64,000 nucleotides of DNA. Source: a virus. Its lineage: Duplodnaviria > Caudoviricetes. The stretch lies in the IMG/VR virus record IMGVR_UViG_3300028805_000089, positions 24,718 to 88,717 of that record, one strand, 5' to 3'. Of this stretch, positions 7,256-51,153 are shown in pieces (within the stretch, counting starts at the first letter, position 1; every line of letters begins with the position of its first letter). A program made the position numbers and the translations under genes. The notes under the pieces are model-generated. The model searched no databases, was not told where the DNA came from, and saw only the letters and a list, made by a program, of their open reading frames with translations.

Positions 7256-7258
7256 TCC

Positions 7259-9305: not shown

Positions 9306-9314
9306 ATCCCGGAG

Positions 9315-14776: not shown

Positions 14777-14780
14777 CTCT

Positions 14781-16346: not shown

Positions 16347-16435
16347 TGTCCGTCTCCTTATGCATTTAATAGGGGAGAAGCAGAAGTGACCCTGCCCCTC
16401 CCCCTTGGCAGGGAGTTGGTTACTTAAAGCCTCCG

Positions 16436-18493
16436 TCAATTGTTCAACGCCCTCGGCGAGTTGTATCTCGCAAACATCCACTGCCGCCCCTGGCTGATCA
16501 ATCTCCTGATCTCATGTGTCCAGTATTCCGCCACGACCAGATTGCCGCCCGTGCCAAAGTGAAGTCCGTCATACGGATGGAGCCATGTGTGGTTTGTTGG
16601 CGTCGCACCGTCATGCGAAAATTCGCCCGTGAATTCAGCGACGCCCACCACGTTCATCGGATAAAGGGCGGCGATCTGGTGGATCACGTTATTCGTAACG
16701 TCCACATCGCCGTTTGATGCCCACACCGTGCCAAGATAGATCCGCGCCGTGTTTTTCTGTGAAATAATTTTTGAGATGATCTTGCAATAATATCCGGTTT
16801 CGGTTTCGGCGAAATCATTATAATTGGTGTACGGAGTGACATCGGTTGATAGCGTATCGGTTAGTCCGTTGTTCGTCCCAAGCCATATAATAAAATCCTT
16901 ATACTGGCTGTATGTATAGGAATCGCTATACTCGGTATACCAGTTTGATGCGGAGTACCCGCTTTTCCCGGCGTTCGTTACGGTTGCCCCCGTGAATTTT
17001 GCCAGAAATTGCGGATACGATACGTCCGTATGCGGAGGATTGCCGTTGCCGTGCCAATAGGATTCAGTCAGGCTGTCACCAATGCACAGAACGTTTTGAA
17101 GATAATATTCGTATCTCGGTTCAAGCCGGTCAATGATTGTTCCTGAGGTAACGGAATTGTCAAGGTATGCGCTCTTAACGGTATACCGATATGACGCAGG
17201 GAGATAGATTTTTGTGGATGACGTTGTCATCTCGCTGGCCCGGAAATATTTCGCGCCGCTCGGCACGATGATCGTGGTCAGGCAGTCAAGCTGTTTGTTC
17301 CACTGGTTCGTTGCTCCGGATATATAGGTCCGGTCGGCATCATAAAACGCGATCCCGGCGGCATCCCTATACCCGCACTGCAGTTTCATCGTGTCTGTAT
17401 GGATCGGCAGGAAATCCGTATAGTTGAAATTGACGCTGTCCGTAAGTTCGCCTGTGCTCGCAACAACGTATTTGCCGGCTTTCCACAGCACGGGCATCTC
17501 AAACCACCTGTCGTATTTTTCATCCGTGCTTCCGTTCATTGCGGCGTATACGTCCTCGGCGGCAGTATAATACACCGTTACCACGCCAAGCGTCTTTGAG
17601 CATGATATCACGATGTATTCGGCGTTAGCAGGGATCGTCGGCACGATCAGGTATGCATCCGTATATGTCCCGGTAAAACCGTCAAGATAACCCAAATCAG
17701 CATCATAAAAAGAAACGCCCGCAGAGTTGTTGTTAAGTTTGGTACGGAACCCGATCAGGTTTTTCACAGGCAGGAATGTCGTTGTGTAATAGGATGTATT
17801 GGTTGCCGCCACCCCGGTGGAATAATCCCTGTACCTGTTCTGTATCAGTGTCGGCGTATATGCCACTGCCGTGTCGATATTATCAATCGCGCTCTTTAAG
17901 TCATCAACATCCCCCGCCAGAGCATCGGTCACCGTCTTGATTCCTGCGCTCGTTACGGGGTTGCTGCTGCCTGCGGTCGGCGTGGAGTCAAACGTCAGTT
18001 TGTCCTGTTTCCCCGTTTCCAAATCGCTGATTTGTGTACTGTGAAAGTCAACGGTCATCTGGTCGGCAGCCTGGATATTGTTTCTGGCAGCGCTCCTTTG
18101 GGCCGAAGTCAGGTTCTGGGTTTCATGCCACACGGCCTTTGAAAGGTCCTCGCCGACGCTCACCTGTACCCAATGCGCGGGTGTCCACGCTTCTGCCGTC
18201 GTGATTTTAGTAGTACACCTGTAAAGCGATCCGTAGTGGATTACATAAGCGCCGACCGCGTATGTCGAGCTGGTGGAATATGTCGGTGCAAAGTTTGCAA
18301 TCGTATCCGTAAAATCATCAGGCAGCGACTCTGTCAGGTTCTACACCCTGTCTGCCGCAGCTTCTGCTGCCGCCGCGTTCGCCTACGCGTTGCCAATTTC
18401 CGCAGCCCATTCGGACTTACTGCCGGTGTATCCTTCCTGCACCGCAATGGCATACGCTGAAATAGGTCCGATCACTTTTGTCTGTGTCGCCAT
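16436..18493 (-). CDS. tail appendage with SGNH/GDSL esterase domain, 685 aa; TAGs at codons 37 and 51
   Basis: N-terminal module paralogous to 12665-14776; CIGDSLT, WLGTNN, DGLH motifs. Confidence 0.8.
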
Positions 18494-18549
18494 TTTCATT
18501 CCTCCTCATTTCATCAAACAGGGGACGGTTCTCCGTTCCCCGTCCTCCG

Positions 18550-19875
18550 TTACTCCATCCCCTCGCTCCCCGCCGTCTCCTCTTCGTCCTCGTACACCGG
18601 CGGCCACGTTTCCGTCGTCACGTCCGGGAAGTCGTTAACACTCGTCGCGTTGATTGTCATCGTTCCATCCTGTGCCAGACTTCTTTCAAACCCGCTCACC
18701 AGATGCCTCTCCAGCGGATATCCTTCCTTGTCCGGTCTCCGCAGCGTAATCAGTTGGTTCTCCTGTATATGGAAAATCTGCCCGCATTCGATGCTCACGT
18801 TTTTCTTCAGCGTCGTATACCGCTTCAGCCTGAACCGCGCCAGACTCTCGCACACTTCGCGGCTGTAATATCCGCTCTGCGCTTCCCTTATCAGCTTCCT
18901 GCCAAGAATATATATGTTCGTGTCGCTCTTCGGGTCGGTATTGATTGCCCTGCCGCCAATCACGCCGTGGTCGCTCAGACTTTGCCCTTCGATGATAACG
19001 TCATTGTACATTTCCCCGTTAAGGATTGTATATGTCGTGCCAAGGAACCGGCTGTTGTCCGGCGATATCTCGTATACCACCGGCTTTTCGCTGTCGTTCA
19101 CGTCATCCTGACTCGGCTCCACGCAGAGCCGCCCGGTGCAGTCATACCCGATGCACCCGGCCAGCATCGTGTTCAGTTCCAGCATCACGTCGGCATAGGT
19201 CTGTCCGGCGCTTTCAGCCCGGTATGTGTAAGGCGCGTCCGTCAGATACCCGACCGACCCGTCCTCAAGTTCCTGCGTCTTCCCATTGTAATAATCGGTA
19301 AACATCGGAGGTACGGAGTCAATCTTCAACCAGCTTTCAGGAGGGATGTTCTGTCCGTACCCCCGTGGGAGATTTAGCAGCCCCTGCATCGCCTGAAAAA
19401 TCGGCGTTCCCACCGTCACCTCATAAATGCCGTCCAGATTGCCAAACAATGTCCCGTCAAGGTAACTCCACTTGTCGTACAGGTCCCACGTCACCGTGTT
19501 GCCCTACGGATCGACCGCCTCCTGCGGGTCCTTAATGTAAAACACGCCCTGCGGCAAATAGAATTCTTCGCCGTTTGGCAGCACCAGCCCCTCACTCAAC
19601 CGCACCTGCGTCCCGAACCAGATCTTGTTCACTTCATAACTGAACGCACCGTCGATGTTCGCCAGCGTCACGCTTGCGTTTCTCCTCTGCCCGTTGTTAA
19701 AGTTAACGGTCAGCGTCCCGTCCTGAATAAACGCCCTGCTCTTTGGGTTGTCCGGGTTGTTGTCAACCACAAAATTTACCGTTCCGTCGGGCCACAAAAA
19801 CTCCAGTTTCGCCAGCTTCTGAAACGGCCCCTTCAGCGCCTCCAGATACAAATTCCACTTTTCGCTCTGTGTCAC
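18550..19875 (-). CDS. tail tip / baseplate-hub-like protein, 441 aa; TAG at codon 124
   Basis: AVDP*GNTVTWDLYDKWSYLDGTLFG; position downstream of the tape measure. Confidence 0.7.
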
Positions 19876-19980
19876 TCTTTCACCCCCAGACACCCACATG
19901 ATTATTTTTCAAACGAGTTTTTCTGCCATCGTAATTTTTTTCAACCGACTTCTAAACATTGCCGCAGGAGCGTCTCCATC

Positions 19981-20154
19981 GCCTTCTCCGTTTGGGGGCC
20001 TGGAGCGCCCGGAAAACAGTCCGGTGGACTGTTTTCAGCGAAAGGCGGGCGGTAGCCCCGGACGGTGTCAGTGCCATCGTAAGACGCTTAGGTCACGGGA
20101 CACCCCGGCCTACTTCGTCGGCCACCCCGTGGCAAGGGATGAGGTTCCCCGTCC
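19981..20154 (+). repeat. expanded palindromic repeat with a nested CAGTCCGGTGGACTG hairpin
   Basis: Starts gccttctccgtttgggg and ends ggatgaggttccccgtcc like the other copies; intergenic. Confidence 0.6.
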
Positions 20155-20186
20155 ATCCGTCAACTTCACTCTCCACTCTTCACTCT

Positions 20187-20390
20187 TCACTCTTTTCTCC
20201 GTTTATCCCTCTTGATCTCCTGGTCCGTCCTCCGCGCCACCTTGCCGTTTCCCGTCAGCTTATACATCGGCACGACTTCGTCCAGCAGCGTCCATCCGGT
20301 CATGTCCTCATCAACCACGGTCCATCCGTCCCGCTCCTCTTTGGATGCCTCCCATATTCTCCGCTTTTCGTCAACCCTTACCCAGCACAT
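20187..20390 (-). CDS. small hypothetical tail-region protein
   Basis: GGAGG RBS, 67 aa. Confidence 0.55.
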   Translation of the reverse strand: MCWVRVDEKRRIWEASKEERDGWTVVDEDMTGWTLLDEVVPMYKLTGNGKVARRTDQEIKRDKRRKE

Positions 20391-20402
20391 ATCCAGCCTC
20401 CG

Positions 20403-22064
20403 TCAAATATTATACGTCACGGTCAGCGTGCATCCCGCCCGCATGAATGTAAAGAATTCGGTCGGGCTGTTCATGCCCACGGCAAATCCTTTAATCGTCC
20501 CGTTCTGAAGCAGATAAAACTTTTCGGGCGGGAATTCAAACGTCCCGGTTTCTCCGGGCGCGATATACTGCATCGGCGCTCCGACGGACAAATACCAGTC
20601 TCCGCTCTGCTATGAATAACTCCACGGGTCGCAGGATCCGGCGTAATTATGTATCGTCGCCGCCGTCAGGTTGTGATAATACGGCCTGATAACAACGCCG
20701 CTGCTGCTCCCGCCGCTGCTTGTCCTTTTGATGCTCACCGTCGCCTTGGTTATCGTGGCCCCGGCCAGCGTCTGCGCAATCGTATCCGCGTCGTCAAACA
20801 GCCAAAGACCGGCCATATATTTTTTGCTCCCGCTGTTGTATCCCATTCTTGGATTGTTCGTTCCGTCGCCGCGCCATCCGATGGCCTTTCCAAGGTACGC
20901 CTCCGTGCCGGTCTTGGAACTCTCGGTAAAGTATCCGCTGCTGCTTGTCCATGTGCTGGTCACCTCGGTCACGGCGGGCGGTGCTTCTCCGCCGCTCGTC
21001 ACCTTGGTCACCGTACCGGAGCATGTGAACGGATAACCGTTGCTCTCATACCCCGTCCCGGCGGAATCTGTCCCGGCGGGAATCGTTCCCTTCGCGTTCA
21101 CATATCCGCCGTCGGGGCTGATGACTACGCCGTTCACAAGGTTCGCAAGCGTCGTTTCGTCCGTGCTGAACGCGCCGCCAGCGCAGTCAACGATATCGGC
21201 ATGCGCATGTTCCACATAGATCGCCGCGCCCGTCCGGTCGATCAGGCATCCGTCGATAAAGGCGTAGCTGCCGTCCCTCACATAAACGCCGTATGCCTGC
21301 CCGTCGTCCCCGGCCTCGCGTTCTACGCCGTGGATTTCAATGCCGCTCACCTTCACGAATCCGTTTCCGCGCAGGTCAACCACCGCGTCCTCCAGCACGC
21401 CCATGAACTGCGTCGTGTCCGTCCCGTCGGTATCGCCCGTGATGTTTACCCTGTTGTTCCCGGATATCACCCAGTCGCCCTTCACCACGGCAGCCTTGTC
21501 AAGGTTCAGCGTCAGCGTCCCGTTCCCGCTGAACCCGGAGATATCCACGTCCTCGACGTATGTCCCTTCAGGTACGGCGATGACCACATCCCCGGTCAGG
21601 TGCTTTCCAAGCCCGTCGATCACATCCTGTATTTTGCCGTTTACCGTCGCGGTCTTCGCACCCTGTATATTGATAATGTCGCCGCCGATATGCCCGTCAA
21701 CCGAGAGGTTGTCAAGCACAAGGCTTACGCCGTTTTCGTCGGCTGAAATAAAAGTCTTTTTCCAGCTTCCGCTGTTCACAGCGCAGGCGTTCCCAAGCCC
21801 GTAAGCCCATTCCACCCACACGCTTTCACCCGGCTGCGCGTTGTAAAGGTCCGGCACAAACGGCACGTCGAACGGCTCTCCGAACGCCTCCCGCACGGTC
21901 AGGACCACGTTTCCGTTTTCGTCTTCATGCGCTCCCTGTACAACGTACATTTTTTTCCTGCGCACAAAGTCCGTGGAATATTCCTTCAGGATATCCGTCA
22001 CAACGTTTTCGATGCCGTTCAGCATCATTTTGTTTTCGACGATTCTGTTTCTTCCGTTATCCAT
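20403..22064 (-). CDS. minor tail protein, 553 aa; TAG at codon 485
   Basis: WSYS*QSGDWYL continues in frame to TGA 20403. Confidence 0.7.
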
Positions 22065-23853
22065 TTTGCTCGTCCGCCTTTATCACGGTCTCGACCTTCA
22101 GTTTGCCCTCGCTGTCAATCTCAAGGTCTGCTGGAACATATTCCATGCTGTTGTCATACACCTGCTCAAGCTGACCGCCGTCGCTCATCTGAATCTCGCT
22201 GCCGACGTACCCATCGTCGTTCATCGTCCACGTCACATATCCGTCCTGATCTACGCTGATAGCCGTCGCCGTGTCGATTATGTCGTCGCCCCGCGCCATC
22301 AACCCGTCCGTCAATAGACTTACGATCTGGCAGTCCTTCGCGTCCCCGACCTCGACCCACGGAATCTCTATCTGCACGGGCTGTTCCGCGTATTTGTCCT
22401 GCGTCTCTTTCACGATGGCGTCGCTTATCTCTATCATCCGCAGGTTGCCCTTCCGGTCCCGCAGGAACTTGACGGTATTCCGCGTGCTCATGTCCATCAG
22501 ATCATCGACCATCTGCACGCTGTCCCTGAACTGCGTATCCTTCACGCCGCCGACCCACGCCCGCAGCTTTCCGCTCAGTCCTTTCCGTCCCACCTTCTGC
22601 ACGGTTGGGTAGGGGGTAAAGTTGTTCTCCACATACGGCGTGTTCTCATTGCTTATGCTACCGCTGTCCACGTTCGCCTGAAACTGGTGTACGCACTTTA
22701 CATGGTACAGGGTATTGTATATCGTTATATATTGTATCTCTTCTTCGTATGCACCGGCAATCGGGAATTTCATGTATTCCGTGTTGGCGGGAGTTGCTTC
22801 TATTATTGCCCAGTTCCAGTAATAGCGCATTTTCATTGGTCTTTCGGATGTCAGCGTGTATCCTTCGTAGTTCGTCGCGGCATAATAAGCTTTGTAAATA
22901 TACTCGGTATTATTGCACGCGCCGAAGTCATACATCTCCGTTTGACCGGGCGGGATCAGTCCAGCCTTTTCCACGGCGTTTGTCTGTGTGTTTATCCGGT
23001 AAATGTCCCATCCCTTTTGCGGCTGCGGCACTTCGTATCCTTCGTCCGCGCTTATCCGCAGGAAAAACGCCGGGTTATCCCGCACATAATAAACTTCCAG
23101 ATGGACCCCTTCCAGCGGCGTCTCAGGCCACGCGACGGTAAAGTCTTCCCAGTCGGTCTGCGCTGTAATCCCGTTTTCAAACGTACCGGTAAGCTGTATG
23201 GAATAATTCGTATGGTTTTTCATCAAACCATAGAAAACAAACGGGGCGCGTGACGCGTATATGTCGCCCGTGTCTTTTAATATCTCATGCTCCGAATCCT
23301 ATTTTGCCAGTTTCCATCTGTATGATATCAGCGGGTTGCCAGGTTGTTCGTCTGATATAAGTCCGCCGAAATAAGCGCAGCGTCCCTGATATAAATATCC
23401 GTTTGGTATCGTAAATGTCGGCCTTTTGCTTGTCAAAAAAAACACGGGACTGATATTGACAAGTCGTTTGAATACAAAGTCTGTACTATCGACATAAAAC
23501 TGGTCTATGCGAAGTTTATAACCGTATTGATAACCGTTGACGATACCGGCGTTTGCAAGGTCTGCTGCCGTGATCGTGTCCTAAAACGGAACGGGATTCC
23601 CGCGTTCGTCCTTGCCGTATATAGGCATTTCATACACTCTTTCGGAGCCGGGTATGTGATAATACTTCGCCCTCACTTCGCTTCTGTATACTTCTGTACT
23701 TTCCGGCGTGTTTTCCAGAATAAAGAACTGCCACGAAACCATCGGCTGCGTCCCGTTAATCTGCCACGTCACCGTCATATCCTGTGTCGCGTCTATAACG
23801 CCCGTCCCGTTAAGCTATGACGGCGTAATGACGGTCGGTTGATAAAGCCCCAT
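22057..23853 (-). CDS. tail tip (distal tail-like) protein, 598 aa; TAGs at codons 13, 91, 185
   Basis: MGLYQPTVITPS*LNG...PVPF*DTI...LAK*DSE; single frame read through to TAA; AAGGAGG RBS. Confidence 0.75.
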
Positions 23854-24244: not shown

Positions 24245-27200
24245 TTACCTGTTTCTGTACAGCCTGTGCCTGCCCAGAATGTCCGTCATCGTTTTCGCGT
24301 CGCTTCCGTCAATCGTGATGCCGTCCACGATAATCGTCGTGCTTTGGTCCACGCTTGAATAGCTTCCGTACTTGCCCTGCTCCGGCGAATACTTGCCGAT
24401 GTCGCCCACCGTAATGGCGTCCCACGTCGGGGCCAGCGCGTACAGCGCGTCAAGCAGTTTCACGGTCCCTTCCATCTGCGCAACGTAATTCTCTCCGGCA
24501 CCCATCATTTTCTGAAGCGCGTCCGTCAGGCTTTCCAGCGGCACCTCCACAGCGTCCACCAGTCTCTGGTAATACTTGTCGAGGTCGTCGTAGGTCTGCT
24601 GCAGCTTGTCCAGCGCATCCTGCAATGGGTCGATGCTCTCTCCGTACTCGTACTCAATTTTCGTCCTCTCATGCTCAAGGTCTTCCTGCTTGCGTTCGAT
24701 TACTTCCTCCTGATCCTCAAGCGCTTCGATTTGTTCCTTGTACTGGTCTTCGATGGCATCCCGTTCCCGCTTCAGCGTCGTGATTTCAAAGTCGGCCAGC
24801 GCGTCAGCATACGCCTCCTCGGCCTCCTTAATCGCCTTCGCGTCGGCCATCCATTCCCATTGCCCGGTTTCTTCATTAAAGTACCTTATCGTCCTCTGGT
24901 GCCTTGCGTCCTCCAGCGCCTGCCGTTTTTCCTCAAGGTCGATGTTTTCCTTGTTGATGTCCCGCTCTTTTTCAAGCCGCTCTATTTCCTTGTTCAGCGG
25001 TTTGATGGCGTCGTCCCTCGCCCTTTCAAGCAGCGTCACTTCATACTGCAGCATCGACAGGCTGTAGTCCAAATCCTCCAGTTCCTCTTCGATGGGCTTG
25101 AGCAATTCATCCCTTGCCCGTTCGATGGCCGTGATATCATCCTGATAACTATCGATCTGGTACTGGATTTTCTTCAGCCCATAATCGATATACTTCCGAA
25201 TGATATCCCAGAAATCTTCCTGTTCTCCTTCGTCGCTGCTCTGGGTTTGGGAACCCTGGCTCTGTTCCCATTCCTCGCGTTCGCTCTTTTTTTCTTCTTC
25301 GTCCTTCTTTTTATCCGGAGGAGGGGTCACGGTCAACTTCGTGGAATCTCCGAACATTTTGCCGAAGAATCCTCCCACAAGGTCCATGAAGTTATTCCCG
25401 CCGTTTGTTCCGTCGGCATAAGCGGGGATGCTCATCTTTCCGCCAAGCAGCGACGCCGTTTCCTTCGCGGTATAGATCGTCGCGCCTTTCGGGATCTTTG
25501 CGATAGTCGGGAATCCGTTTGCGTAAATCTACGCCAGCCCATTCCCGGCAACCAACTCCGGCCCTTCCTCGTTGATCAGGGCATATCCGCCTTTGAAGTC
25601 GGAAGCGCCGTTTGCCGCCTTTGGTAGGTTGAACAAGTCTTTGAGTCCTTCAAGAACGCCGCCTGACGGCGATTTTGTATTCGTCGTTACGGTTATCGTC
25701 TTGTTCTTGATTCCCTCCAGCGTGGTTTTCAGGCGGTTCAGTTTGCTCTGGCTGTCAGAAACGTTTGCGTTAACGCTGAAACTGATTGTCCTTTCGATAA
25801 ATTCCTGAAGTTCTTCAATGGACTCAAGTTCTGTATAAGCGTTTCCTTCAGCGTCAATGGTCAGCGTGGTATGTTTTCCGTTCCCTTGCGTATCGCCAAA
25901 GAATTCGTCGATGATTTGCGTCCCGTCGCCCTCAGTTACAATCTTGACCCTGTGAACGGTACCGGCAGCTTCATCGATTTCCGTAATAATGTCCATAACG
26001 GCGTCGCTGTCTTCCACCTGGAATTGCGCGGTGTATACCATCGTGCCGTCTTCAGTCATAAACGAATCTTCGCTGAGTTTGATTCCGGCGACCGGAAGTT
26101 CAGCTGGATTTTGCCCAAGATTAGCCTGCACAACAGAGGAAGCTTCTTCTGCGGCACTCTTTGCAGAAGACTCATCGGCTGTCACTTTCAGTTCTATCCC
26201 GGCATACATATCTTTAAGCGATCTGCCCTTCGTGGGATCAGGAGAACCGGTGTTCAGCGGACTTGAGGGATTTAATATCGGACTTAAAGCAAATAGCGAC
26301 CCGGTGAATGGGTCATCATCAAAAACGGCGCTCAAATGATAATGATAAGATTCGTCTGTAGTATTGATGCTGTCGGCAATCAGTTTTTGTGCCGCCGCGA
26401 CGCCCGCCTCGACGCCGTCAGTTGTTGCTTCCAGATCATAAGTGCCAAACTCGCCGCTGTTTACCGCTCCCGTGCTGGTCACTACATTTTTTTCGACTTT
26501 ATCAAGGGCTTCGACGGCACCGTCATCATTTCCCGTAACATTGATAACAGCCTTGTTGCTTGCGGCGTTGGCTTTTTCTTCTGCGGTTACGACGACCTGG
26601 TCGGCCTTATTATTAAATTTATCGAGATCGCCGTCATAATGGATCATCCGTACCGTTTGCGTCGGCCCGTTTGCGGTTTCTTCAAGTATAACGATCATAG
26701 CGTTCAGCATATCGCCGTTCGCGCTGTATTCAATCTCCCTTACACCTAAAACAGAATTGGCGTTTGCGTCCGTGATCGAAAGATTTGCCACCTGACCGTT
26801 TGTCTTGTAATAAATATCGCGAATGCGTCCGGCTTGATTGGCAATAAATTCCACGTCCTGAATATTATCGATCTGTCCGTCCGTCGTGAATGTAACATGT
26901 CTGTCTTTTGTCAATGTGTCCATGTTCCATTCAAACACGTCCGCGTCTCTTAACGTGCCGTCCGTATAAAAGCCGACTTTCCGTTGCGTTATATTCGCCA
27001 GCGTTGTATCTATGACGTCGATATTGTTGACTTTGCCGGTAGAGTCAAACTGTATTGTTCTGGTCTCGGCGGCGGCTTCGGCACCGGCAAGTATTTTGTC
27101 GATTGTCATTTGCGCTGTGCCGTCCTGATCGACTTCAAAACTGATTTTGTATGTCGTGCCGTCGTTTTCAAATATGTTTAATCCATTCGGCGTCTATGCG

Positions 27201-30200
27201 GCTGTCGCCATTCCGCTGTTGTTGATAAGCTTTCTGAGATACTCCCAATCCGCGTCGTTTCCGGATGCGTCTTTGATTGCCGTGATTTTACCTTCGACCA
27301 TTTCAAGGGAACCGCCTGCGGCCTCGGCGGCCGCCTGCATTCTCGCAAGCATTTTGTCGGCTCCCTCGGCATTCCCGTTCAGACGCATCTGGTCAAGATA
27401 CGCGTTCATGGACGCGACCTGCTCGGTCACGTTTTCATATCCGCTTACGTCAACGGGCAGTCCAAGCGCTTCCGGTGTACTTTCGGCGGCGATCTGCGCG
27501 GCGTTTGAGAGTTCTTCCCGGACGGTCTGCGCGTCTTCCGCAGCATGCTCCGTGGCGTCTTCCATTTTTTCGGTGTAATCGGCGTAATTTTGCCATCCGC
27601 CCTCAACGTCAGGAACACCTTGTATCTCGACTTCGCCGATTTCGTTCAGCAGATAAAGCCATTCCTTCATCTGCATCCACTCGGATGAACCCATTCCGGA
27701 ATTCTCGGCGAACGCAAGCAGCTTGTCATAATCTATTGTCAGCAGACCTTCTTCTGTTTCAGCCGCAAACCCGGCTGCCTTGCCCATTTCCTTCAGTTGT
27801 GCCGTGAAATTTTTTACGTCCGATTCAAGGTCGCCGTATACGCCCAGGGCCTTGATGGCATCCCATGTCTGATCGATACTGAGATGAGTCGCCTCGGCAA
27901 GCCCCTGCAAATCAGAAACGGTAAACTCTATTTGCCCGTTTACTTCTTTGTAGGACGCGACGACTTTGTCATTCAGCTTGATCTCGCCCGTCTTCTTGTC
28001 GGCGATTTTTGCAAGCACGGCAAGGAATCCCTCGCCGTAAGTCTTTTCCGCGTCGCCGTACATTGTTTTGTACGGTCCGTTTGCCATGAACGCGTTGACG
28101 CCCTTATAACCTTTTTCGCGGTACAGCGTATCGAAATCCGTCCCGCTCCCGGCCATCAAATATCGCGCCGCAGCCATTGCTTTCTGGCTGTTCACGCGTC
28201 CCGCCTCGATCTCCTCGGCGTATGTCGCGTATGCGCTCTGGTAATCCGCGAATCCTTTATTTTCCGCGTCGCGTTCCATTGCGGCGTCAAAGGCCGTCTT
28301 GGCTTTTGTCGCGGCGCTTAATGCGGCTGTAAGTTTGTTTACGCTTGCGGCTGCTTTATCGGTACTATTTGCCATTCCGGCGGCACCATCGAATTCGGTA
28401 ATCCTTAACCATTCTTTATATACTTGCGGATACCTCTACGCAAATAATTCGAGAAACGCTGTTCTTATATATTTGGCATAACCCGGATAATTGTTTTCGT
28501 CAATTGTATTGAATAGCGTTTCCATTTCTCTTGCATATTCGCGCAGCGTATCTATATCTACATCTCCACCGGAATTAATAATGCCTTGTAAATTCTCCAG
28601 TTTAACCCAGTTTGGATTATCTATCTACATTAGGGAATTTGCCGCCGAATCAACATAGGCGTTTAATGCTGTTGACGCTCTTTCGTATGCGTCACTCGCG
28701 TCATCTAAATACTCAACGATTCGTGAGTAGCTTGGAACATCTGTCGCCTTAATATGATTGTCTAAGGCGTATTGCTCTATTTTAGCTTTTAAAAGCTTTA
28801 CAGATTCGTACTGCTCATAAAGTTCTTTTGCATCAAGTCTCCAATAATCAGTTAACCACGCGGTATAAGATGGTTGATTCGTTCCCTATGGTGTAATAAT
28901 ATTGGCAATTTCTTCTCTGAAACCATCGAAAAGCTCTTTTAATTCATCTGTGTCGCCAAAGAAAAAACGATATGTCTTTGGCGTAAGTGGAACAGACATA
29001 ACAGAAGTGCGGTTAAATTCATCAAGAGCGCCCTTGGCCGCCGCTTCGGCTGCCTTTATTTGCTCTTTTGTCATTTGACGAATTTCGTCTCCCGCAGCTA
29101 TCGCTTGATCTCTCGTTAGGCCAAGTGCGTCCGCCAATGCATAAAGTGCGGTGGTATACTCTTCCGTTCCTTCTTTGGCGGTTAAAAAATTGGCGTAAAG
29201 AGTCATTGTTTCAGTACTGTTTTGATTTGCTTTTTGTCCTGCTGCTACGGCGGCTTTTGCCTGTTTTTCAACATTCGCATTGTAATCCTGCAAAAGTTTA
29301 TTTGCAACGCTTATTGCAACACCAGCAGCGGTCACAGCAAGTCCAAACCCTCGAATGTTTCCTGTCATGCCGGTGACCCAATTTGTATCTCTTCCGGTAA
29401 ATCCAGCCCATAACGTTGCAATTCTTTGTGCTTTCAATGCCGTTACCAATCCAAGTACGATGGTTAGTGCATTTGCTAAATTGCCGACAGCTTGAACTGT
29501 GCCGTTTAACAAATCGAGAACGCCCTTGATCATTCCGGTAGAAACCGTATTATTGACCAGCGCGACCCAGCTTGCCTTCAATCGTTCCGTCTTGACGGTG
29601 ATGGAATCCAAAGAGTTTTGTACCTCCCGGTCGATACTCCCGCTGGCACCTTCGTAGGTCTTCAGCATGCTCTCGTACATGTCCCAGTTCTTGATGAGTA
29701 CCATCAACTGGTTTGTGCGCAGCTTGCCGCCGATATCGCTGACCATGCTGAACAGTTTCGCCTCGGTCAGGATGCCCTGCTGATAGGATTTTGCCAACGC
29801 CCCGATGGCCTCCATCGGGTCGATCAGCGTTCCGGTCGCTTCGGCGGCGCGTACCACTTCGGGCGCGTACAGTTCCAGCACCTGGCGAAGTCCTTCTATT
29901 TCGCCTGCCGTCCATTTCGCGCCGTCCTCGATCTCCGTGGTCGTGTCGCCCATGATGTTCAGGAAAATTGCGCGGAGGGCGGTCGCCGCTTCGGTGCCGC
30001 TCCTCTGCGTAACGGCGGTAACGGTGCCAAGGGCGGCGGTCAGTTCGTTGATGCCTACGTGCGCGGTGGAAGCGATGGTCGCCAGTTTACCGATACCGGC
30101 GCTGATCTCTGCCACGTTCGTGGCGTATTCGTTGCCGATCTGGTTCGCGCCGTCCATCGCGGCGGTCAGGGCCTGGATGTTGCCGTTCAGCCCGTAAGCC

Positions 30201-30706
30201 TTGTCGATGGCCAGGATGTACTGGTTCGCAACGTCTGCGCTCACGTCGCCTGCCCTTTGCAGTTTAACGCTCAGTTCCGCAAGCCCCTCTGCCTGGTCCT
30301 TGTAACCTGCGCGTGTAAAGTCGGCCACGCCTGAAAGGTACTTGGACGCAGCTACGCCGTATGCCTGCGCCACCTTCATAGCGTTCTGCGTCATTCCGGC
30401 AAGTTCTTCGTTTGTCTTTCCGGTCACACGGCGTACCACGACCAGTTCGTCGTCGATGGCCTTGATTTCCTGATACGCGCTTTTCAGATTATTTGTAAAC
30501 GTCTTCCACAATTTCGTGCCAAGGCTGTTCAGCATGTTTTCGTACAGTCTCGTGGTATAACCCACCATCTGGTTAGCCGCTTGCCCCATTCGTCCGCCCA
30601 GATTGATATTCGCCTGCTGCTGCAGCTGATTTAACTGCTGCTGAAGCCCGGCGACGACCGCCGACATATTGTCTACTGCGTTAATATTTACGGTTACGGT
30701 TGCCAT
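24245..30706 (-). CDS. tape measure protein, 2153 aa; 5 in-frame TAGs
   Basis: TP901-type N-terminal region (IDDELVVVRRVTG...); ORFs of 606, 393, 526 and 396 aa plus the gap between the first two share one frame, separated only by TAG at 28886, 28625, 28436, 27194 and 25529. Confidence 0.9.
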
Positions 30707-31486: not shown

Positions 31487-32557
31487 TCAGGCGGTAACGA
31501 CCACGTTGGCCACAACACTCAGGTCGCCGTTTTCCACGGTGATCTCCGTGTTACCGGCGGCCGCGCCGGTCAGCACGCCCTTGTCGGAAACGGTCGCCTT
31601 GGAAGTGTCGGTCACGGTGTAGGTCAGGTCGCTGTAGTCCGGCTGCACCAGGCTGTCGTCGGCCATGACGTACTTCACGGGGACCTGCACGGACTGCGAG
31701 GCGGCAACGGTCACGACGCCGCCGACGATGGCCATGCCCTTCACGTCCACCAGAGCGCCGCCCACGGGCATATCCACCATGTAAGCAAGGGCAAAGGACG
31801 CTTCGTCCACGCAGATGCCCTCGGCGGCAGCCTCTTCATAAGGCAGAGCGGAACCGGACAGGGTGTCAACATCAGCGTCGGTCTGGTCGCCCTTCACAGG
31901 CGCTTCGCCCTTGAACTGCATCCTCGGAATCCAGATGTAGCGGTCGCCCCACTTGGTGCCCTTGGTGCTGCCCTGGCCCTGAGTGGTGTACAGCGGCATA
32001 CGGATCATGCAGATTTCGATGTTGGGTTCAAACACGCTGTCAACGCGCAGCTGATGGGCACTGGCGGCGCGGACGAAGTACCGCACGCAGTAGGTCTCGC
32101 CGACCACGGGAACGAAGTCCTACACGGCCTTGGTAGTGGGATCGATTTCGAAAGCGACGCCGCTCTTGTCCACGAAACCGTAAATCTTGTCGGTTCCGTA
32201 GGGAGCCACGGGGGTCTGACTCACGATCAGCGCGGTCGCGCCGGAAGCGACGGTAATGGTCTCCAGTACGGGGATGATTCCGTTGTAGCTGAGTTCGCCG
32301 CCGACGGACAAGGCACGGCTCTCCAGGGTGGAGGTCGCGGCGGTGATTTCCAGTTCCAGCTTGGCGCTGTCAGGCAGGTTCAACAGGACGGGGTTCCGCA
32401 GGGAGCCGTTGATCTCGCCCATGTTGGTGCTGGTTGTCAGACTGTTGGTCTGGATTTTGTTGGAATAGAAATCCAGGTTGAAAGTGGACGGGTTGAAAAG
32501 CCAAACGTCCATAGTGCCTTTCGCATAAATGGGAGTACTGTTGGTTGCGTAAGCCAT
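31487..32557 (-). CDS. major tail protein copy B with C-terminal Ig-like domain, 356 aa; TAG at codon 146
   Basis: TKAV*DFVPVVGETY; highly similar to 32575-33666. Confidence 0.8.
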
Positions 32558-32574
32558 AATCTTACATCTCCTCT

Positions 32575-33666
32575 TTAATCATTTGTAACATAAACAACAA
32601 GCGGCGCGAAATACGTTTCACCGTTCACGGTAATTCGCGCATCAACGTGTCCCATACCGGGACCTACGGCCATGAATATGCCGCTTTTTTCAAGCTGTCT
32701 TCCGGACGTCACAACAGTAGTCGGCCCGATATCGTACCTAAACAAACTGTAATCCGGTTGGGCCAGCGTTCCGTCCTTCATTACATATTTAAGCGGAACG
32801 GTTGCAGACTGGCCGACTTTCATTTCCATATATCCGCCAACCATTACGATGCCTTCAAAATCGGCCCACGGTCCGGCTGCAGGCATGTCTACCATATACG
32901 CCAGCGCGAAGGACGCTTCGTCCACGCATACACCTTCGGCAGCCGCTTCCTCATAGGGAAGGGCGCTTCCGGACAGCGTGTCCACATCGGCGTCGGTCTG
33001 GTCGCCTTTCACGGGCGCTTCACCCTTGAACTGCATCCGGGGAATCCAGATATACCGGTCTCCCCATTTCGTACCCTGTGTGCTTCCCTGTCCCTGGGTC
33101 GTATACAGCGGCATCCTTATCATGCATATCTCAATATTCGGCTCAAACACCGAATCGATACGCAATTGATGTGCGCTTGCGGCCTTCACAAAGTACCGCA
33201 CACAATAAGTTTCACCGGCAGTCGCGGCGAAGTTTTTCACCTTCCGTGTGTCCGCGTCGATCTCGTAGGCGATGCCGCTCTTGTCCACAAATCCGTACAC
33301 CGTGTCCGTGCCATAAGGCGCGACAGGGGTCTGACTTACGGTCAAATCAGCGCCGGACGCCGTAACGGTTTCCAGCACGGGAATAATCCCGTTATACGTC
33401 AGTTCTCCGCCCACGCTCAATGCGCGGCTCTCAAGCGTCGATGTGGCTGCGGTAATCTCCAGTTCCAGTTTCGCGCTGTCCGGAAGGTTCAGCAGAACAG
33501 GGTTTCTCAGCTAACCGTTGATCTCTCCCATATTGGTCGAGGTCGTCAGGCTGTTCGTCTGCACCTTGTTGCTGTAAAAGTCAAGGTTGAACGTGGCCGG
33601 GTTAAACAGCCACACGTCCATCGTTCCCTTGGCATAAACAGGCGGGCTGTTTGTCGCGTAAGCCAT
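32575..33666 (-). CDS. major tail protein copy A, 363 aa; TAG at codon 52
   Basis: GEING*LRNPVLL aligns with GEINGSLRNPVLL in copy B. Confidence 0.8.
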
Positions 33667-35094: not shown

Positions 35095-36453
35095 TCAATA
35101 CCCGTACACGTTCACCGTCACGGTCTTTTCCATTCCGTGCGATGCAGCGCTTACGGTAATTTCACCCGGCAGGAATCCGGTAACCGTTATCCGGTTCCCG
35201 TCCTGCTCCCATGACGCCGCGTTCATGTCCCATGTCCTCACGGTATATTCAACGGCTTCTTCGGTCTTCACGCCGCCGACAAACCACGCGGCCTCCAGAG
35301 TAACACTCTGGTATTGTGCGCATTTCTCGGCCTTCTGCAGCCATTCAAGCCCTTCGATGATTTCCCCGTCCACCGTGATTGCGGCCTCGCAGGTTATCTT
35401 TTCGTTCTCCTCAAGTGTAGCGCGGATGACGCATTCGCCCTCGCCGACGGTCGTAATAACACCGTCTCCGTTTACCGTCGCCACGTTCTCGTCCGTGCTT
35501 TCATACCGCCATGTCAGCGGATATTCTCCCAGCCGTTCCACTCCTCCGTCAGCGGTCGTTCCGTAGGTCACGCCGTCAATGATGGATAGTATCTGGCCGT
35601 TTCGCACGGTCTCGATCCCGGTCTGATAAGTTTTGCCGGGAATCGCTTTTGCGGGAACGCCCGTAAACGAGGCGTGCATGTCAAAACTTTTTCCGTCGGC
35701 CACCCTGTTCTCCAGGTCGTCGCTTTCGATGGGTTCCTGGCTCTGCAAGTCGAAATACAGGATATGCGTGGAATCCGCGTTCCCTGTCTCGCTCTGCAAA
35801 AAGTCGATCAGGCCCCTCACCATATAAGCCATCGTCCCAAGGATCATCCGGCGGTTCGTCAGCAGGTCCTTCGTATCCTCGTTCAGCTGCATCACGCATT
35901 TCTGGTAAAGGTTCGGGGATACGATGTAGTCCATATATTCGTTTGCGCTGGCCTGGCTCTGGTTCTTCGCCCAGTAAAACGGCTCTTCCTTGATGTTGCC
36001 GTAAAAGTCCAGCCGCCGCCATGTCACGTTGCACCTTCTGCACACCGCAGTCGCCTGCGCTCCGTTCGCTTCGTCCGGGTTCTACACGATGTATGTATCC
36101 CCGTTCACTTCGATCTTCGCGCCAAGCCCCACGGCGTTGATCTTTGAACTTTCAAACTTTATCTTTTTCCAGTCCTCAATGATATTGGTGGTCGTGCCGT
36201 GCCTTACCATGACCTACATACGAATCCGCGTCCTGAACCATTTATAAAAATCGTCCTCGTCGATACCCTGGACCCGCGCCATGTACATATCCTACGCGTA
36301 TTTCAGATTCCTGTTGTTGTAATCCGATGTGTTCCGCGTGAACCCGTACTACCTCTGCAGCCCTTCGTTTTCGGAAGGGGATTTCACCCCGGCGCGTTTT
36401 CTGTACGGCACCATGCTCTTCGCGTTGCCTATCCTTTTCTCTATCCCTTCCAC
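35095..36453 (-). CDS. neck / head-closure-like protein with Ig-like C-terminus, 452 aa; TAGs at codons 35, 54, 80, 124
   Basis: AAGGAGG RBS, GTG 36453; LQR*YG, KYA*DM, IRM*VM, YIV*NP all in frame with the 316 aa ORF. Confidence 0.78.
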
Positions 36454-36566
36454 GCCGTCTCCTCCTTCCTTCTTTTTTAAACTCCGCTGTCATTATCGCG
36501 TTTCATTCAGGTTCCCCGCGCCCAAACTCTCGGACCATTCCAAAACTCCACTCTTCACTCTTAAAT

Positions 36567-37265
36567 TCAAACCGGAGGTTTAAATTTCTTCCCGCTCGGC
36601 AGCGTCTCCATTGCCGCCAGCCCCTGCTCAAAGCTGACCAACGCGCTGTTCAGTTGCCCGTAAATCGTCTTCAGCCTTTCCGTTCCCTTGGCGATCCAGT
36701 TGCTCTCGTTGCCCACGTCAAAGCTGTCGTCCTTTATCTTCGGCGTCCTCGGGAGAAAGTCGTTGTTGAACCTCCGCTCCCATACGTACTGTACGCACAG
36801 TCCCAGAATGTTCTTCATTTCGTCCGTCAGGTCGTTCTCAAAATACCCGTCGGTATAGAAATCGAACTGCACGCTCCTGCCGCCCTCCACTACCTGGTTC
36901 ACGGTTACGCTCCCGGTCTCCGGGTCGTATGTGATATCAAGCGGCACATACACCGGCGTACCAAGGTCGTCTTCTTCGATCACCCCGGCGCTGCATATTT
37001 CAAACCCCGTGATTCCCGTCTCGATCACGTCGCCCTAATCCAGCATCGTGGTCGTTTCGATTTCCGTATCCTCCCAGTCCGGGTCCGTGTGGGCAAGCCA
37101 TGTTTTCGCCTCCGGTGGCCGGTTGAACATCGGTATTCCGTTCTTCATGTACAGCGCCATCTTCCTGAAGAATCCGGCGGGGTTCTCGTCCATCTCGTCC
37201 TGAAGACGCACGTCTTCTTGCTGCACCATAAAATAGTCGCAGATGATCTCCGTATATGCTGTCAT
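36567..37265 (-). CDS. head-tail connector-like protein, 232 aa; TAG at codon 77
   Basis: TTMLD*GDVIETG joins two ORFs in frame. Confidence 0.7.
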
Positions 37266-41425: not shown

Positions 41426-42916
41426 TCAGCGCATGATGCGGCTGATCGCCCCGTCCAGGCCGTCGCCGTCCTTGCCGTTGCTGTTCACGATGTCCCACGC
41501 CAGGGTCCTGCGCTCGTTCTCGCGCTTTTTCTGAGCGGCCTTCAGGACTTTGTCCATGCAGGCGGCGTTCAGCGCCTCCACGGCACGCTCCGCGCCGTTC
41601 CACTTGCCGCAGTTGTCGCAGCAGTCTTCCTCGGCGTATTCCTCAGCATCGTCTTCCAGACCCTTGCACAGTTCCTCGCAGCCGTCCACTTCCATCTCGC
41701 GGACGATCTCGTTCAGGCGGGCCTTCAGGGCGTTCTTCACGTCCTCGATGCGGCGCTGTTTTTCCATCTCGCGCAGTTTCGCGACTTCGGCCTCGGCCTT
41801 GTCGGCGCGTTCTTTTTCAGCGGCGCACAGTTTCTCGGCCTTCTCCTGATTCGCGGCCATTTCGCCGGTCAGTTCGGCGATGTCCACCTCAAAGGCGGTT
41901 TCGTCGTTCAGTTTGAAAACGGCGTTGACACTCAGAGCCTGGAAATGTTCGGGGACGATGGTCTCATCGGTATTCTCGAACACGTAGGCGCAGGGGTCGC
42001 CGTCCTTCAGCATGCAGACGTGCTTTTCGTCCGCAGCCAGCACACGGCAGCCGTCACCAAACCGCTTCGCCAGTTCAGCAAGCTGTTTCCTGTTCATCTT
42101 TCTGTTCACTCCTTGTTTTTCGTTGGTCTCATTGTCCTCGGCCTTTTCCTCTTCCATCGACGCGGCCCTGAGTTTCATTTCTTTAAAAGCCGCCTGCATT
42201 TCGGAAAGCGCCCGGACATTGGCACCGGGGATGGCCGGGGCGACGTCATCGCCCAATATGGTCACGCCCAGTCCCCTCCAGTTTGTGTAGACGTCGATGT
42301 TCCCATTCTGTTCTCCCTCGAACACTTCGGTCTCTGCGCTGACAGACATGCGCCCCTGCGACGCGATTTTGTCAACAAGTTCTTTATGATAAAAGCGCCA
42401 GAGTTTTCCACGGGCAATAATCCATTCCTGCCCATCCTTCTCTTCGACGCGAATATCCCCTTCATTTTCCCCGATGCACCCAACGATTCTTTCGGCATAC
42501 GGACTCATCGTGGAGTAATAGGTGTTGCCGTCGGCGTCGGTCTTCTGGTCCATGTTATGCCCGTCGCCGATCTTGCTTCCCACATACGCGGTCAGGATGG
42601 GGCATCCGCAGAACGTCCATGCAAAATCCTTGATGTTCCTGTAGTCCCAGTTGTTCCTGTTCACCCCGCTCCGCATCACTTCGATCTCAACGGAGTACGT
42701 CAGGTCGTTGTCTCTCTGCAGCACCCTCAGTTCCCCGCATACGGGCTTTTCATCCTGCCCGTCATTTTCCTGCCCGGTTTTCAGTATATAGGCACTCTAT
42801 GTGCAAACCGTCCAGTTGGTCGCATTCGCATTGGTTACGCTGTCACAAAACTCTTTCATAGTTGTGGACAACTGCCCCGTGTTTACGACCAGCTCTTTGC
42901 CGCCTTCCATTTCCAT
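41426..42916 (-). CDS. prohead protease / scaffolding protein, 496 aa; TAG at codon 40
   Basis: GGAGG RBS before ATG 42916; VCT*SAY in frame with GELRVLQ...DGHNM...GVTILG and a coiled-coil C-terminus; the 5' extension is less certain. Confidence 0.7.
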
Positions 42917-46041: not shown

Positions 46042-47853
46042 TCACCGTTGAGCGTTCCCACCCCGGTATCCAAGCCCGCGTCCCCTCGTGTCCAGGTGCT
46101 TCATCCCGCCTTTACGCTCAAACTCTTCTTCCCATTCTCCCCGGCGCTCAAAGTCCATCGCCAGTTCCTGGTACTCCAGTTTGCTTGCCCACCGGCAGGC
46201 GTACTTGAATGCCGACCACATATCCCTCTGGATATGGTTGCTCACGCGCTGCTCCTTGATGGTCACGCCCATCGGCTTTTTCACGAGGTTGGCTATCTGT
46301 TCGCACATCTCTTTCGTCTTGATGTACGGTATGGCGATGCTTGCGTTCAGATCATCGTCCTTGATCCGGTGGGCCTGCTTGTATGCCGCCACGCCGTCGT
46401 ACACGTTCTGCGTCAGCAGCCGCATGTTCCCGTGTTCAAACTCGATCTCCATATACCGCACCATCTCGGCGTCCGGGTCATGCGTCCCGGTCACGCCGCC
46501 CTGGCCCGTGGCCTTGATGGCGTATATCACAGGCAGCGCCCCGTTCCTCTCAAGTTCTGGGAACTCATGGTTCACCGTGCATAGGGGAGGGAGTCCGTCT
46601 CCCAAATCCTTGTGCAAATCCTCAAGCACTCCCTTGCCGTATTGCCAGGAGTCGATGGCGATGTACACCCGGCTGCCGCCTGCGGCGTAACGCCTGAAGG
46701 TTTCCTTCAGTTGCCGCGCCTGCATCATTGCTTCCCTCGGCGGGGGATTGTCGAAAACATACACAAGGCTTTTCTTGTATCTGTCTGTCCGGAACGCGCC
46801 CTTCTGTTTCTCCAGCTTCACGACCGCCGTCGCGCACATGGCGTTTTTCGCCCCGTCCACGTAGCTTACGTCGTACCCGATAACGTATATAACGTCCGGC
46901 TTGCCGCATCCCCGGTCTTCCATCACCGAAAGGTCGCTGCTTTCGTGCAGTACGCTGTCCCGGATGATGGGATTCTCGGTCGATCCCGTCCAGACACATT
47001 CCATTTCACGCGTCCATTCCTCCGGGGTCAGGTTCTTCTTCTGCGTCTTGTACCATTTGATATCGCGGACGCCCAGCAGCACGGCGACGATCCCTGGCCA
47101 GGATATCGAAAAGGCGCTCCCGCCTTCCCTCTGCATCTTTACGATGCTCTCCCGCACCGCATACGCTTCGTTCGTCTTCCTCTAAGGGTTCGTAACGTAG
47201 TGATGCTGTACCTGGGGGAAGAAGGGGTCCCGCTCCTTGTTCACCTTCCGCACGATACGGATGGCGGGGGAGATGACCTTGCGGTAATTCTCATGGTTAA
47301 ATTTGTTCCCGGCCTCCTCCTGCGCAAACTCCTCGTTCGTCACGCCGCTGGCGTTCAGGCCACGGAAGTTCTCGCAGGAAAACAGGCTGCCGAATTTCGT
47401 GTTCAGGATGAACCGCGCTTCGGTGTTGGAGGATACCGTAAAATACTTGCACAGTTCCGGGTAGTTCTGCTGTACCGTCGTCCACGCGTCGCTGATGATA
47501 AGCGCCGTCTGTTTCATGCTCGGCCCGTAATACTGCAGCTTGATCCCCGGATACAGTATCATCATCACCAGGTTTGCAAGGAAATGGCTGTAACTCTTCA
47601 GCGTGCCGCGCCCGCCGTCGATGAATGTATCGCTGTACCGGCATACCGCCCGGATATTCACCCTTGCGATGATCTACAGCCCGTACATCGCGTTCGGACT
47701 TTCAAACATATCCAGAAACTTGTCCGGATACCAGCGCCAGTAGCTGATAAGCAGGCCCCATTCGTTCGGAAGCAGGTCAACGTCCCTGTCCCGGACGGTC
47801 TTCTTCTCTTCCCATTTCCTTTTGCTTTTGTTGTAATGCACCCTGAAAGGCAT
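46042..47853 (-). CDS. terL: terminase large subunit, 603 aa; TAGs at codons 60 and 224
   Basis: RWYPDKFLD, GGRGTLKS (Walker A-like), GVTNEE (Walker B-like), YVTNP*RK, GYDVS nuclease motif, RDMWSAFKY. Confidence 0.88.
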
Positions 47854-49108: not shown

Positions 49109-49181
49109 CGGGAAATGCCGGACTCGAACCAACAGCCATCGCGTTAACAGCGCGCCGCTCTCCCAATTGAGCTAATTTCCC
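49109..49181 (-). tRNA. tRNA-Asn(GUU)
   Basis: GGGAAAT/ATTTCCC acceptor, GCTC/GAGC D stem, GCGCG-CT GTT AA-CGCGA arm, TTCGAGT T loop. Confidence 0.88.
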
Positions 49182-49388
49182 GTATCCATCCTGCTAACCG
49201 GAAGGTGATTCCCGGTCTGTCATTCCTTTTCCCTTCCGTAACCTCGGACCGCGCCTTTCCCTTTCTCCCGTGGCCTCGGATGCTGACAAAGCATGTGTAC
49301 CATCGTTCGTCCGTTGATGACGCTGTTGATTATTTATCTTCGTCCAAAACTCCACTCTTCACTCTCCACTCTTCACTCTTTTAAAAAG

Positions 49389-49475
49389 CGGAGGCACAGG
49401 GATTTGAACCCCGGGGGGCTTTTACACCCCTGCGGTTTTAGAGACCGCCGCATTCAACCGCTCTGCCATGCCTCC
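49389..49475 (-). tRNA. amber suppressor tRNA-Ser(CUA)
   Basis: GGAGGCA/TGCCTCC acceptor, G73, Ser-type D arm GCAGAGCGGTTGAATGC, perfect stem GCGGT-CT CTA AA-ACCGC, long variable arm, CGGGG-TTCAAAT-CCCTG. Confidence 0.93.
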
Positions 49476-49545
49476 ATACAAAAACGGCACATCCTTTCGG
49501 ATGTGCCGCATTGGCACGCAGACGTCTTCTCGCCCCGTTACCCGT

Positions 49546-49574
49546 ATTATACCATTTTTTTCAACAAAAGTCAA
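49546..49574 (-). promoter_or_regulatory. sigmaA/sigma70 consensus promoter for tRNA-Ser(CUA) and the late operon
   Basis: TTGACT - 17 bp - TATAAT with TGn extension, about 70 nt upstream of the tRNA. Confidence 0.85.
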
Positions 49575-49607: not shown

Positions 49608-50090
49608 TTATTTTTCATTTTTTACGACGTTCCGGATGATTTCAACCGCTTTCTCCGCGTCACTGATCGTCAGTCCGCTCAACGCGCAGGTCTTCACAAG
49701 GTGGGGGAGGATGCCGTTGTCATCATAATCCGGCGCAACCTCGTCGTCCAGTACGCACCATCCTTCCATCAGGTCTTTGGCGTTCCTGTCTATCCATTCC
49801 CTGATCTCCGCGCCGCGCCCGTCGCCGTGTCCGGTCTTCCCGCTGATGTGTATCCCGCATCTCTTCAACTTCCGCACCAGGTACTTCCCGGTCTCGCTCG
49901 TTTCCTCCGGGTCCCGTTCCCATTCGTCCCGCCAGGAGGAACACAGCACCACGATGGCGTCCGTCTCTTCGATGATGTGCTTCAGCTTTTTAACGCACGC
50001 GTCCTATATCCCGGTATGCCCTCCGGGTTCCGTCGCGTCGCATCCGGCGTAATTCAGCACGCCGTCCACGTCCAGAAATACTGCCTTCAT
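49608..50090 (-). CDS. HAD-superfamily hydrolase (Swiss Army Knife RNA-repair type), 160 aa; TAG at codon 29
   Basis: MKAVFLDVDGVLN motif I lies upstream of GI*DAC; VVLCSSWR and CVLDD lie downstream. Confidence 0.85.
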
Positions 50091-50733: not shown

Positions 50734-51153
50734 TTATTCCTTTCTCTCTGATTCAAATTCTTTGTGTTTCTTTGCTACAACTTCGCGCATCTCGTTGATG
50801 GCGTTCGTAATGTCCTGCACGAACGGGTAACGCGCCCTTTCCTTCAGGGCCTCCCGGAATGCGTCCTATTCCTGCCTGTGCGCGTCCAGTTCGTCCCGCG
50901 TGAATATTTGCTTCGACCTCTTCTCGTACTGGTCCACGTACATCTTCCCGTTGTCCCCGTCGTATGTCACTTCGTAGAACTTCCCGTCGTAAGGCGTCGT
51001 GATGACTAACGCCTTCCTGTTCTGGATCGTCTTGCAGTACCACACCAGCCGCAGACCGTCGATCTTAAAGTCCCTCGGCACCCGGTACTTCAGAGCGTAT
51101 TCCATGTCCCGGAAAAACTGTTCCTCAATCAGCGGCATTCCTTCCTCGATCAT
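50734..51153 (-). CDS. DUF6275-like phage protein, 139 aa; TAG at codon 96
   Basis: VWYCKTIQNRKAL...YEVTYDGD; HRQE*DAFREAL continues to a TAA next to the downstream RBS. Confidence 0.7.

Follow-up and report, generated by a model that had tools for sequence, protein, structure and literature searches.

We report a phage whose amber codon, TAG, is very probably read as serine, a reading that rests on alignments and on tRNA sequence, and whose likely decoder is a suppressor tRNA with the anticodon CUA encoded at the head of the late genes. The stretch analysed, hereafter the window, is 64,000 nt long, and positions refer to it unless stated otherwise. The explanation that we hold with good confidence is that this tRNA, serylated by the seryl-tRNA synthetase (SerRS) of the host, would insert serine at the TAG codons of the late genes; its action may also be tied to the late switch. 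Features bearing on this explanation are collected in Table 1.

Table 1. Features of the window relevant to amber recoding (window coordinates)
Feature	Coordinates	Strand	Details
Holin	10641..10910	-	TAG codon 49 (10764-10766); Thr, Ala, Ser, Ser in homologues
Distal tail and adsorption genes	within 12665..23853	-	Eight TAGs in five genes
Endolysin	14781-16346	-	Three TAGs
Tape measure protein	24245..30706	-	2153 aa; five TAGs; a recoded relative has TCG at codon 1726
Two major tail tube paralogues	31487..33666	-	One TAG each
Structural gene	35095-36453	-	TAG codons 35, 54, 80, 124; relatives have TCA at 80 and TCG at 124
Structural gene	36567-37265	-	One TAG; the pair of structural genes spans 35095..37265
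YonD-like head gene	41426..42916	-	TAG codon 40
Large terminase (YonF-like)	46042..47853	-	603 aa; TAG codons 60 (47674-47676) and 224 (47182-47184); close relatives have Ser
tRNA-Asn(GUU)	49109..49181	-	Second cassette gene; with the suppressor in all recoded loci covering the site
Conserved non-coding spacer	49182..49330	-	About 150 nt, between the two tRNAs
Amber suppressor tRNA	49389..49475	-	Anticodon CUA; G73; tRNA-Ser(UGA)-type body with long variable arm; no encoded CCA
Terminator-like hairpin	49478..49509	-	11 bp and U run, between promoter and suppressor
Sigma-70/SigA-type promoter	49546..49574	-	11/12 consensus; extended -10
HAD_SAK_2 phosphatase	49608..50090	-	Directly upstream of the promoter; TAG codon 29 (50004-50006) in 5/5 recoded genomes
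DUF6275 gene	50734..51153	-	TAG codon 96; ACG in four relatives

The window belongs to a phage genome of 88,717 bp with 53% G+C, a 157-bp terminal repeat and an estimated completeness of 100%. Two tyrosine integrases and a CI-like repressor, all free of TAG, are encoded at genome positions 5061-6008 (+), 6677-7786 (-) and 9014-9484 (-), and the phage is therefore probably temperate. By sequence its head and tail genes are SPbeta-like, the terminase being YonF-like and the head and tail genes of its relatives matching the YonD, YonB, YomW, YomN and YomU families. The type of lysin (SpoIID, NlpC/P60 and PG-binding), the closest tRNA matches and the named homologues point to a host among the Clostridia of animal guts. 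A host search of 401 genomes from the order of a Christensenella MAG yielded a 38% portal match as its best result. No close relatives emerged from single-protein and alignment scans of IMG/VR, and a scan of JGI metagenomes recovered relatives only at 45-51%; exact patterns of the suppressor tRNA and of the adjoining spacer had no matches in the collections, which may omit near-identical records. Also present are three further tRNA genes at 7184-7414 (+), namely an Ile tRNA with the unusual anticodon TAT, a Thr(TGT) tRNA and, in the middle, a gene with an irregular anticodon arm that was called as Thr or as an intron-bearing Tyr. A low-G+C HNH endonuclease gene (6287-7150) precedes these three genes, and the stretch after them (7420-7790) looks structured, with no Rfam match. 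Three distant portal relatives (L047, L049 and L055) contain a 98-nt tRNA-like gene to which ARAGORN assigned a four-base anticodon (e.g. L047:6154-6251).

The first-pass annotation, made from the sequence alone, had described the suppressor as an 87-base gene on the minus strand in which all stems pair and the anticodon is CTA, and its sequence and coordinates stand as first described. Full tRNAs were called by both ARAGORN (49388-49475 (-), anticodon CTA) and Rfam RF00005, the latter over the full model at 56.1 bits (E 2e-9) with a 16-nt insertion corresponding to the variable arm. The cloverleaf comprises a 7-bp acceptor stem, a 3-bp D stem flanked by a 13-22 mismatch, a 5-bp anticodon stem, a 5-bp variable-arm stem and a 5-bp T stem, with CUA followed by A37 and A38. 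All 25 cloverleaf pairs are standard in each of five copies (125/125 cells), the window copy including one G-U pair in the T stem, and one variable-arm pair has changed on both sides, five copies this close offering little power to detect covariation. An encoded CCA, missing from the window copy, is present in the four others. The possibility that CTA is a sequencing error for CGA, raised by the same annotation, was checked against JGI 3300041553, SRR14574040, ERR3220189 and ERR9559533, independent assemblies from different projects. Each contains the suppressor gene with an identical CTA, and the copies (loci L004, L010, L094 and L095) vary in the D loop, variable arm and T arm. Because CTA is the same in four assemblies that otherwise differ within the gene, such an error is ruled out and the anticodon is real. 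No other CUA tRNA is encoded in the phage genome.

Published rules for recognition by SerRS name a long variable arm, G73, G1-C72 and G2-C71 (PMC9976931). All of these are found in the suppressor together with A3-U70, as had been claimed from the sequence, and C11-G24 is there as well. A3-U70 and C11-G24 are further identity features of bacterial tRNA-Ser. With the anticodon masked, the best scores of the tRNA body were 51.5 with Ser(UGA), 14.5 with Tyr, 8.5 with Leu and 5.5 with Gln; the comparison set, whose search pattern enriched Ser, included 20 Gln, 32 Leu and 10 Tyr genes. The Gln, Tyr and Leu identities were rejected on these scores. Hallmarks of tRNA-Pyl are a short variable loop, a 6-bp anticodon stem and a D loop without the canonical GG; the suppressor has none of them, and tRNA-Pyl was likewise rejected. 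An allo-tRNA was rejected on the 7/5 acceptor/T stems, which are not 8/4 or 9/3. That the gene is of pyrrolysine, tyrosine or leucine type, or an artefact of sequencing, is thereby left with a label of Pyl from ARAGORN, given on the anticodon alone, and with a long variable arm that is also typical of Tyr and Leu tRNAs, and we consider it extremely improbable.

Profile searches of the complete phage genome found no tRNA-synt_2b or tRNA-synt_1c domain, hence no class IIb or class Ic synthetase, and no release factor (RF-1 domain, PF00472), the controls giving positive matches in reference genomes. The first result agrees with the earlier proposal that the phage needs no synthetase of its own. 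Because neither enzyme was found in the phage, we infer that the suppressor would be charged with serine by host SerRS and would compete with host RF1. Charging by the host enzyme would be expected because SerRS recognizes its tRNA by the variable arm, the acceptor stem and G73, irrespective of the anticodon. Serine identity and host charging, as first proposed, are thus supported: the masked body groups with tRNA-Ser, and the TAGs of the genome behave as serine codons.

With TAG read as a sense codon, 16 genes of the genome contain a total of 29 in-frame TAGs, and 27 of these TAGs fall within the late operon, which lies downstream of the suppressor. The genes for the terminase, head protein, tail tubes, tape measure, distal tail, endolysin and holin are interrupted by TAG only and become intact on read-through, and no late gene needs TAG as a stop. 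Of the serine-box codons in late genes, 27 of 655 are TAG; the remaining called genes have 2 of 418 (Fisher p 1.4e-4), and the early arm has none among 296 (p 6e-5). The capsid and portal of this genome contain none, and TAG sites are gained and lost between relatives. Outside the late operon the sole plausible TAG-ended gene is TnpB/Cas12f-like (L338:2287-3468; genome 13286-14467, before the window), in which the TAG lies just past the last RuvC motif and is followed by 30 codons. It is probably a true stop in the early arm, and the C-terminal tail would probably be gained late in infection. One of the two TAGs upstream of the promoter, in the HAD_SAK_2 gene, is shared by all five recoded genomes, so that this protein would be completed only once the suppressor is made. 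The gene encodes an RNA-repair-type phosphatase and adjoins the tRNA cassette; it and a metallophosphoesterase gene after the portal (43049-43837 (-)) both occur in the recoded clade, and neither has a close match in the three standard-code loci read.

To assign a residue to TAG we used three standard-code sisters (L002/L006, L003/L007 and L093/L097), which share about 82% terminase identity with this phage, six recoded relatives and sets of protein homologues. One of these sisters, the 76-kb L003/L007 (GCA_017536185.1), was deposited within a 'Lentisphaeria' MAG, a placement that is probably a binning error because its genes are of Bacillota type. With the tree and model fixed for each gene, all 20 residues were scored at every TAG column. 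Over 42 such columns serine was best; its lead, in log units, was 60.9 over Thr, 67.7 over Ala and 112.3 over Gln. Serine also led at the 25 columns with TAG in the window (Thr by 46.4, Gln by 77.5) and at the 17 with TAG in relatives only (Thr by 14.5, Gln by 34.8), and when each gene was left out in turn it remained first by at least 19.7 log units. Masked sets of true Ser and true Gln codons were recovered in 1000 of 1000 control trials. Alignments of the tape measure to standard-code relatives were mostly too poor to inform.

Codon exchanges among the recoded relatives point the same way. TAG alternates with TCG, TCA, TCC, TCT or AGC at nine well-aligned sites: terminase codon 224 (TCG), codons 80 (TCA) and 124 (TCG) of gene 35095, tail tube codon 52 (TCC), tape measure codon 1726 (TCG), codon 141 of gene 37283 (TCG), capsid codon 341 (TCT), and portal codons 316 (TCC) and 527 (AGC). 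The single-base path from TCG to TAG suggested by the first-pass annotation is accordingly seen at several sites. At the tail tube site (33511-33513, in 32575-33666) the paralogue and all four relatives have Ser; the two tail tube paralogues are 80% identical, and the relatives read carry one. The suppressor is present in L004, L010, L094 and L095, which are all the recoded loci covering the site, and neither it nor in-frame TAGs were found in the region read of the standard-code L002, L003 and L093. Phylogenetic analysis placed the five recoded terminases in one clade (support 100/99) among standard-code terminases, which is consistent with a single recent origin of the recoded clade.

Glutamine is the usual amber residue in phages (code 15; 10.1101/2021.08.26.457843), and under that code TAG would be Gln throughout and the suppressor either glutaminylated or incidental. 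This was rejected by the alignments, in which TAG columns align with Ser and include invariant Ser columns (terminase 224 and tail tube 52); Gln stands 112 log units below Ser, and the tRNA, at 51.5 vs Ser(UGA) and at most 5.5 vs Gln, is without Gln identity. We regard the chance that code 15 applies here as negligible.

A mixed reading was also considered, in which TAG is mostly Ser with a real share of Gln, or in which the clade once read TAG as Gln. It could come about through mischarging by GlnRS or a non-discriminating GluRS, by way of U35 and G73, or through a near-cognate host tRNA-Gln. Four of the 42 TAG columns favour Gln, above the level of ordinary Ser codons, and the best Ser/Gln mixture contained 13% Gln with a gain of 5.6 log units, beyond the controls (0/400 sets). 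Among recoded relatives TAG faces CAG at three sites, and at codon 35 of gene 35095-36453 (36349-36351, -), the one clear exception to TAG as Ser, four recoded genomes carry TAG where most homologues have Gln. However, TAG also faces GAG and AAG, as point mutation under a serine code predicts. The change from CAG to TAG is a single transition, and an excess of Gln is thus expected even under a pure serine code; since TAG as Ser opens one-step routes from Gln, Glu and Lys, an amino-acid model underrates them. Moreover, three of the four Gln-favouring sites vary in standard-code relatives, codon 35 being the one that does not, and only one CUA tRNA is encoded. The Gln acceptor set known from E. 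coli work differs from G1-C72 and A3-U70, the pairs of the suppressor, which further argues against mischarging. We therefore judge a mixed reading unlikely, and retain serine as the residue.

The ancestry first proposed for the suppressor, a one-step origin from tRNA-Ser(CGA) by a change of G35 to U, is not supported. In the 401 genomes searched, its best 14 callable matches are all Ser(UGA) genes, at 77-87% identity, whereas 30 Ser(CGA) genes of the same class are 58-71% identical and differ in the D arm and anticodon stem; the Ser(UGA) set was chosen by similarity and the Ser(CGA) set by pattern, and the similarity search could have returned CGA genes but did not. These comparisons point to a Ser(UGA) body that underwent two anticodon changes, unless a UGA-like Ser(CGA) exists in some host outside the sample, and the two changes may have passed either through CGA or through the ochre anticodon UUA. 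Ser(UGA)-type bodies with an ochre anticodon were observed in two IMG/VR contigs (L295:223-310 (-) and L275:3247-3289 (+)), the L275 copy being cut as at an attachment site; these would be natural examples of one possible intermediate between UGA and CUA.

Examination of the region preceding the suppressor identified a promoter and a terminator-like hairpin. The promoter, of sigma-70/SigA type, is kept in the recoded relatives, and promoter-like sequence occurs at the same place in standard-code relatives. A leader lies between the promoter and the hairpin, which ends a few bases before the suppressor; across seven sequences 97% of the cells in the hairpin pair, with covariation not above that of shuffles. 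In all three standard-code sisters promoter-like sequence, a short conserved motif and a hairpin precede the first late gene, at the small-terminase position, without tRNAs. The cassette of suppressor, spacer and tRNA-Asn thus entered behind a control element that is older than itself and ahead of the late genes, and the hairpin is a candidate late attenuator. The spacer is strongly conserved in all five recoded genomes and contains a 13-nt motif twice and several GGA motifs; it has no Rfam match, a folding z of -0.3 and no conserved reading frame (one relative has a 2-nt indel). Just upstream of the -35 box lies a short palindrome (49578-49591) whose outer bases co-change in L004 and which is imperfect in L010 and L095, making it a weak candidate for an operator.

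Lambda PR'-tR' offers an analogy for such a late promoter-terminator arrangement. By this analogy, the promoter would give a short terminated RNA until a late factor permits read-through, and transcription past the hairpin would yield first the suppressor and then the TAG-containing messages. TAGs in the terminase, tail and lysis genes would then be read as serine in competition with host RF1. Made mainly on terminator read-through, the suppressor would couple the code switch to late-gene activation and would be silent in the lysogen. That a late antitermination step controls the suppressor is a hypothesis we rate at roughly an even chance.

The same assignment of serine could accompany a different regulation, in which the suppressor is constitutive or early, the hairpin serves only in processing or stabilising it, and the TAGs reflect neutral drift into a new Ser codon. 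Consistent with drift, TAG accounts for just 4% of late serine codons, is absent from the capsid and portal here, comes and goes between relatives, and occurs in two genes upstream of the promoter; also, searches of the phage genome for late regulators of the NusG and DUF1492 families found neither, and no antiterminator or late activator was identified. Yet the early arm is empty of TAG, as expected if the suppressor is unavailable early, and standard-code relatives, in which there is no tRNA for it to process, retain the hairpin with its U run. As an account of regulation we find constitutive expression possible, if doubtful, and prefer coupling of the suppressor to late transcription. The fuller history, in which a G+C-rich temperate lineage recently and independently gained TAG as Ser through a Ser(UGA)-derived cassette placed behind an existing late promoter and terminator, such that late transcription and the new code start with a single antitermination event, is put forward tentatively, as a proposal falling a little short of even likelihood.

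These results bear on how stop codons come to be reassigned in phages. In phages of standard-code hosts, the largest survey of recoded gut phages found TAG to Gln and TGA to Trp and no other reassignment; it linked recoding to low G+C and argued that phages can co-opt the Gln and Trp synthetases with particular ease (10.1101/2021.08.26.457843). In the later papers on phage recoding that we consulted, the residue is again Gln, or isotypes were called as Trp, Ile and Tyr, and our literature search found no recent report of TAG to Ser in a phage. With 53% G+C in this genome, 55-59% in its standard-code sisters and TAG ending 11 of 91 called genes in the latter, a low-G+C route of stop-codon loss is not applicable. 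The clade would therefore represent a second route to recoding, one without low G+C and in which a tRNA alone suffices, since the anticodon plays no part in recognition by SerRS. Annotation pipelines with code 15 imposed would mistranslate these phage proteins. A suppressor behind an ancestral promoter and terminator would also suggest a testable trigger for the code switch of a phage and a way for a lysogen to leave the stop codons of its host unsuppressed, and the closeness of the sisters' terminases makes the states before and after recoding directly comparable.

Among known systems, the E. coli amber suppressor supD (serU) has a serine tRNA body with a CUA anticodon and is charged by SerRS; it is a laboratory mutant that arose from Ser(CGA) by one change. 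The present suppressor shares the serine body and anticodon but is natural, conserved and needed by the phage's own genes, and its body is of Ser(UGA) type. Allo-tRNAs, some of which occur in phages, also combine serine identity with a non-serine anticodon, but have 8/4 or 9/3 acceptor/T stems where the suppressor has the canonical 7/5 (PMC5389517). Like the crAss-like, Lak and temperate Garnet and Topaz phages that read TAG as Gln, this phage encodes a suppressor tRNA(CUA), and like code 15 gut phages it concentrates TAG in structural and lysis genes, has TAG-free integrases and has close standard-code relatives; unlike them it inserts, on our reading, Ser, in an 88.7-kb genome with YonF/YonD/Yom-type (SPbeta-like) head and tail genes (10.1101/2021.08.26.457843). 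The closest precedent, as summarized in a review (PMC4695839), is the report of Ivanova et al. (2014, Science 344:909) of phages reading UAG as Ser and as Gln, which by the review's account have a Ser-tRNA(CUA) or Gln-tRNA(CUA) together with RF2. As in the amber-to-Ser phages of that account, whose hosts were presumed to use the standard code, a phage Ser-tRNA(CUA) is here paired with UAG as Ser, whereas the RF2 that the review ascribes to them was not found in this genome. The serine assignment itself thus has a precedent from 2014, and the present clade is a well-documented case of a rarely reported kind, for which we also show standard-code sisters, swaps at the level of single codons and the place where the cassette was inserted.
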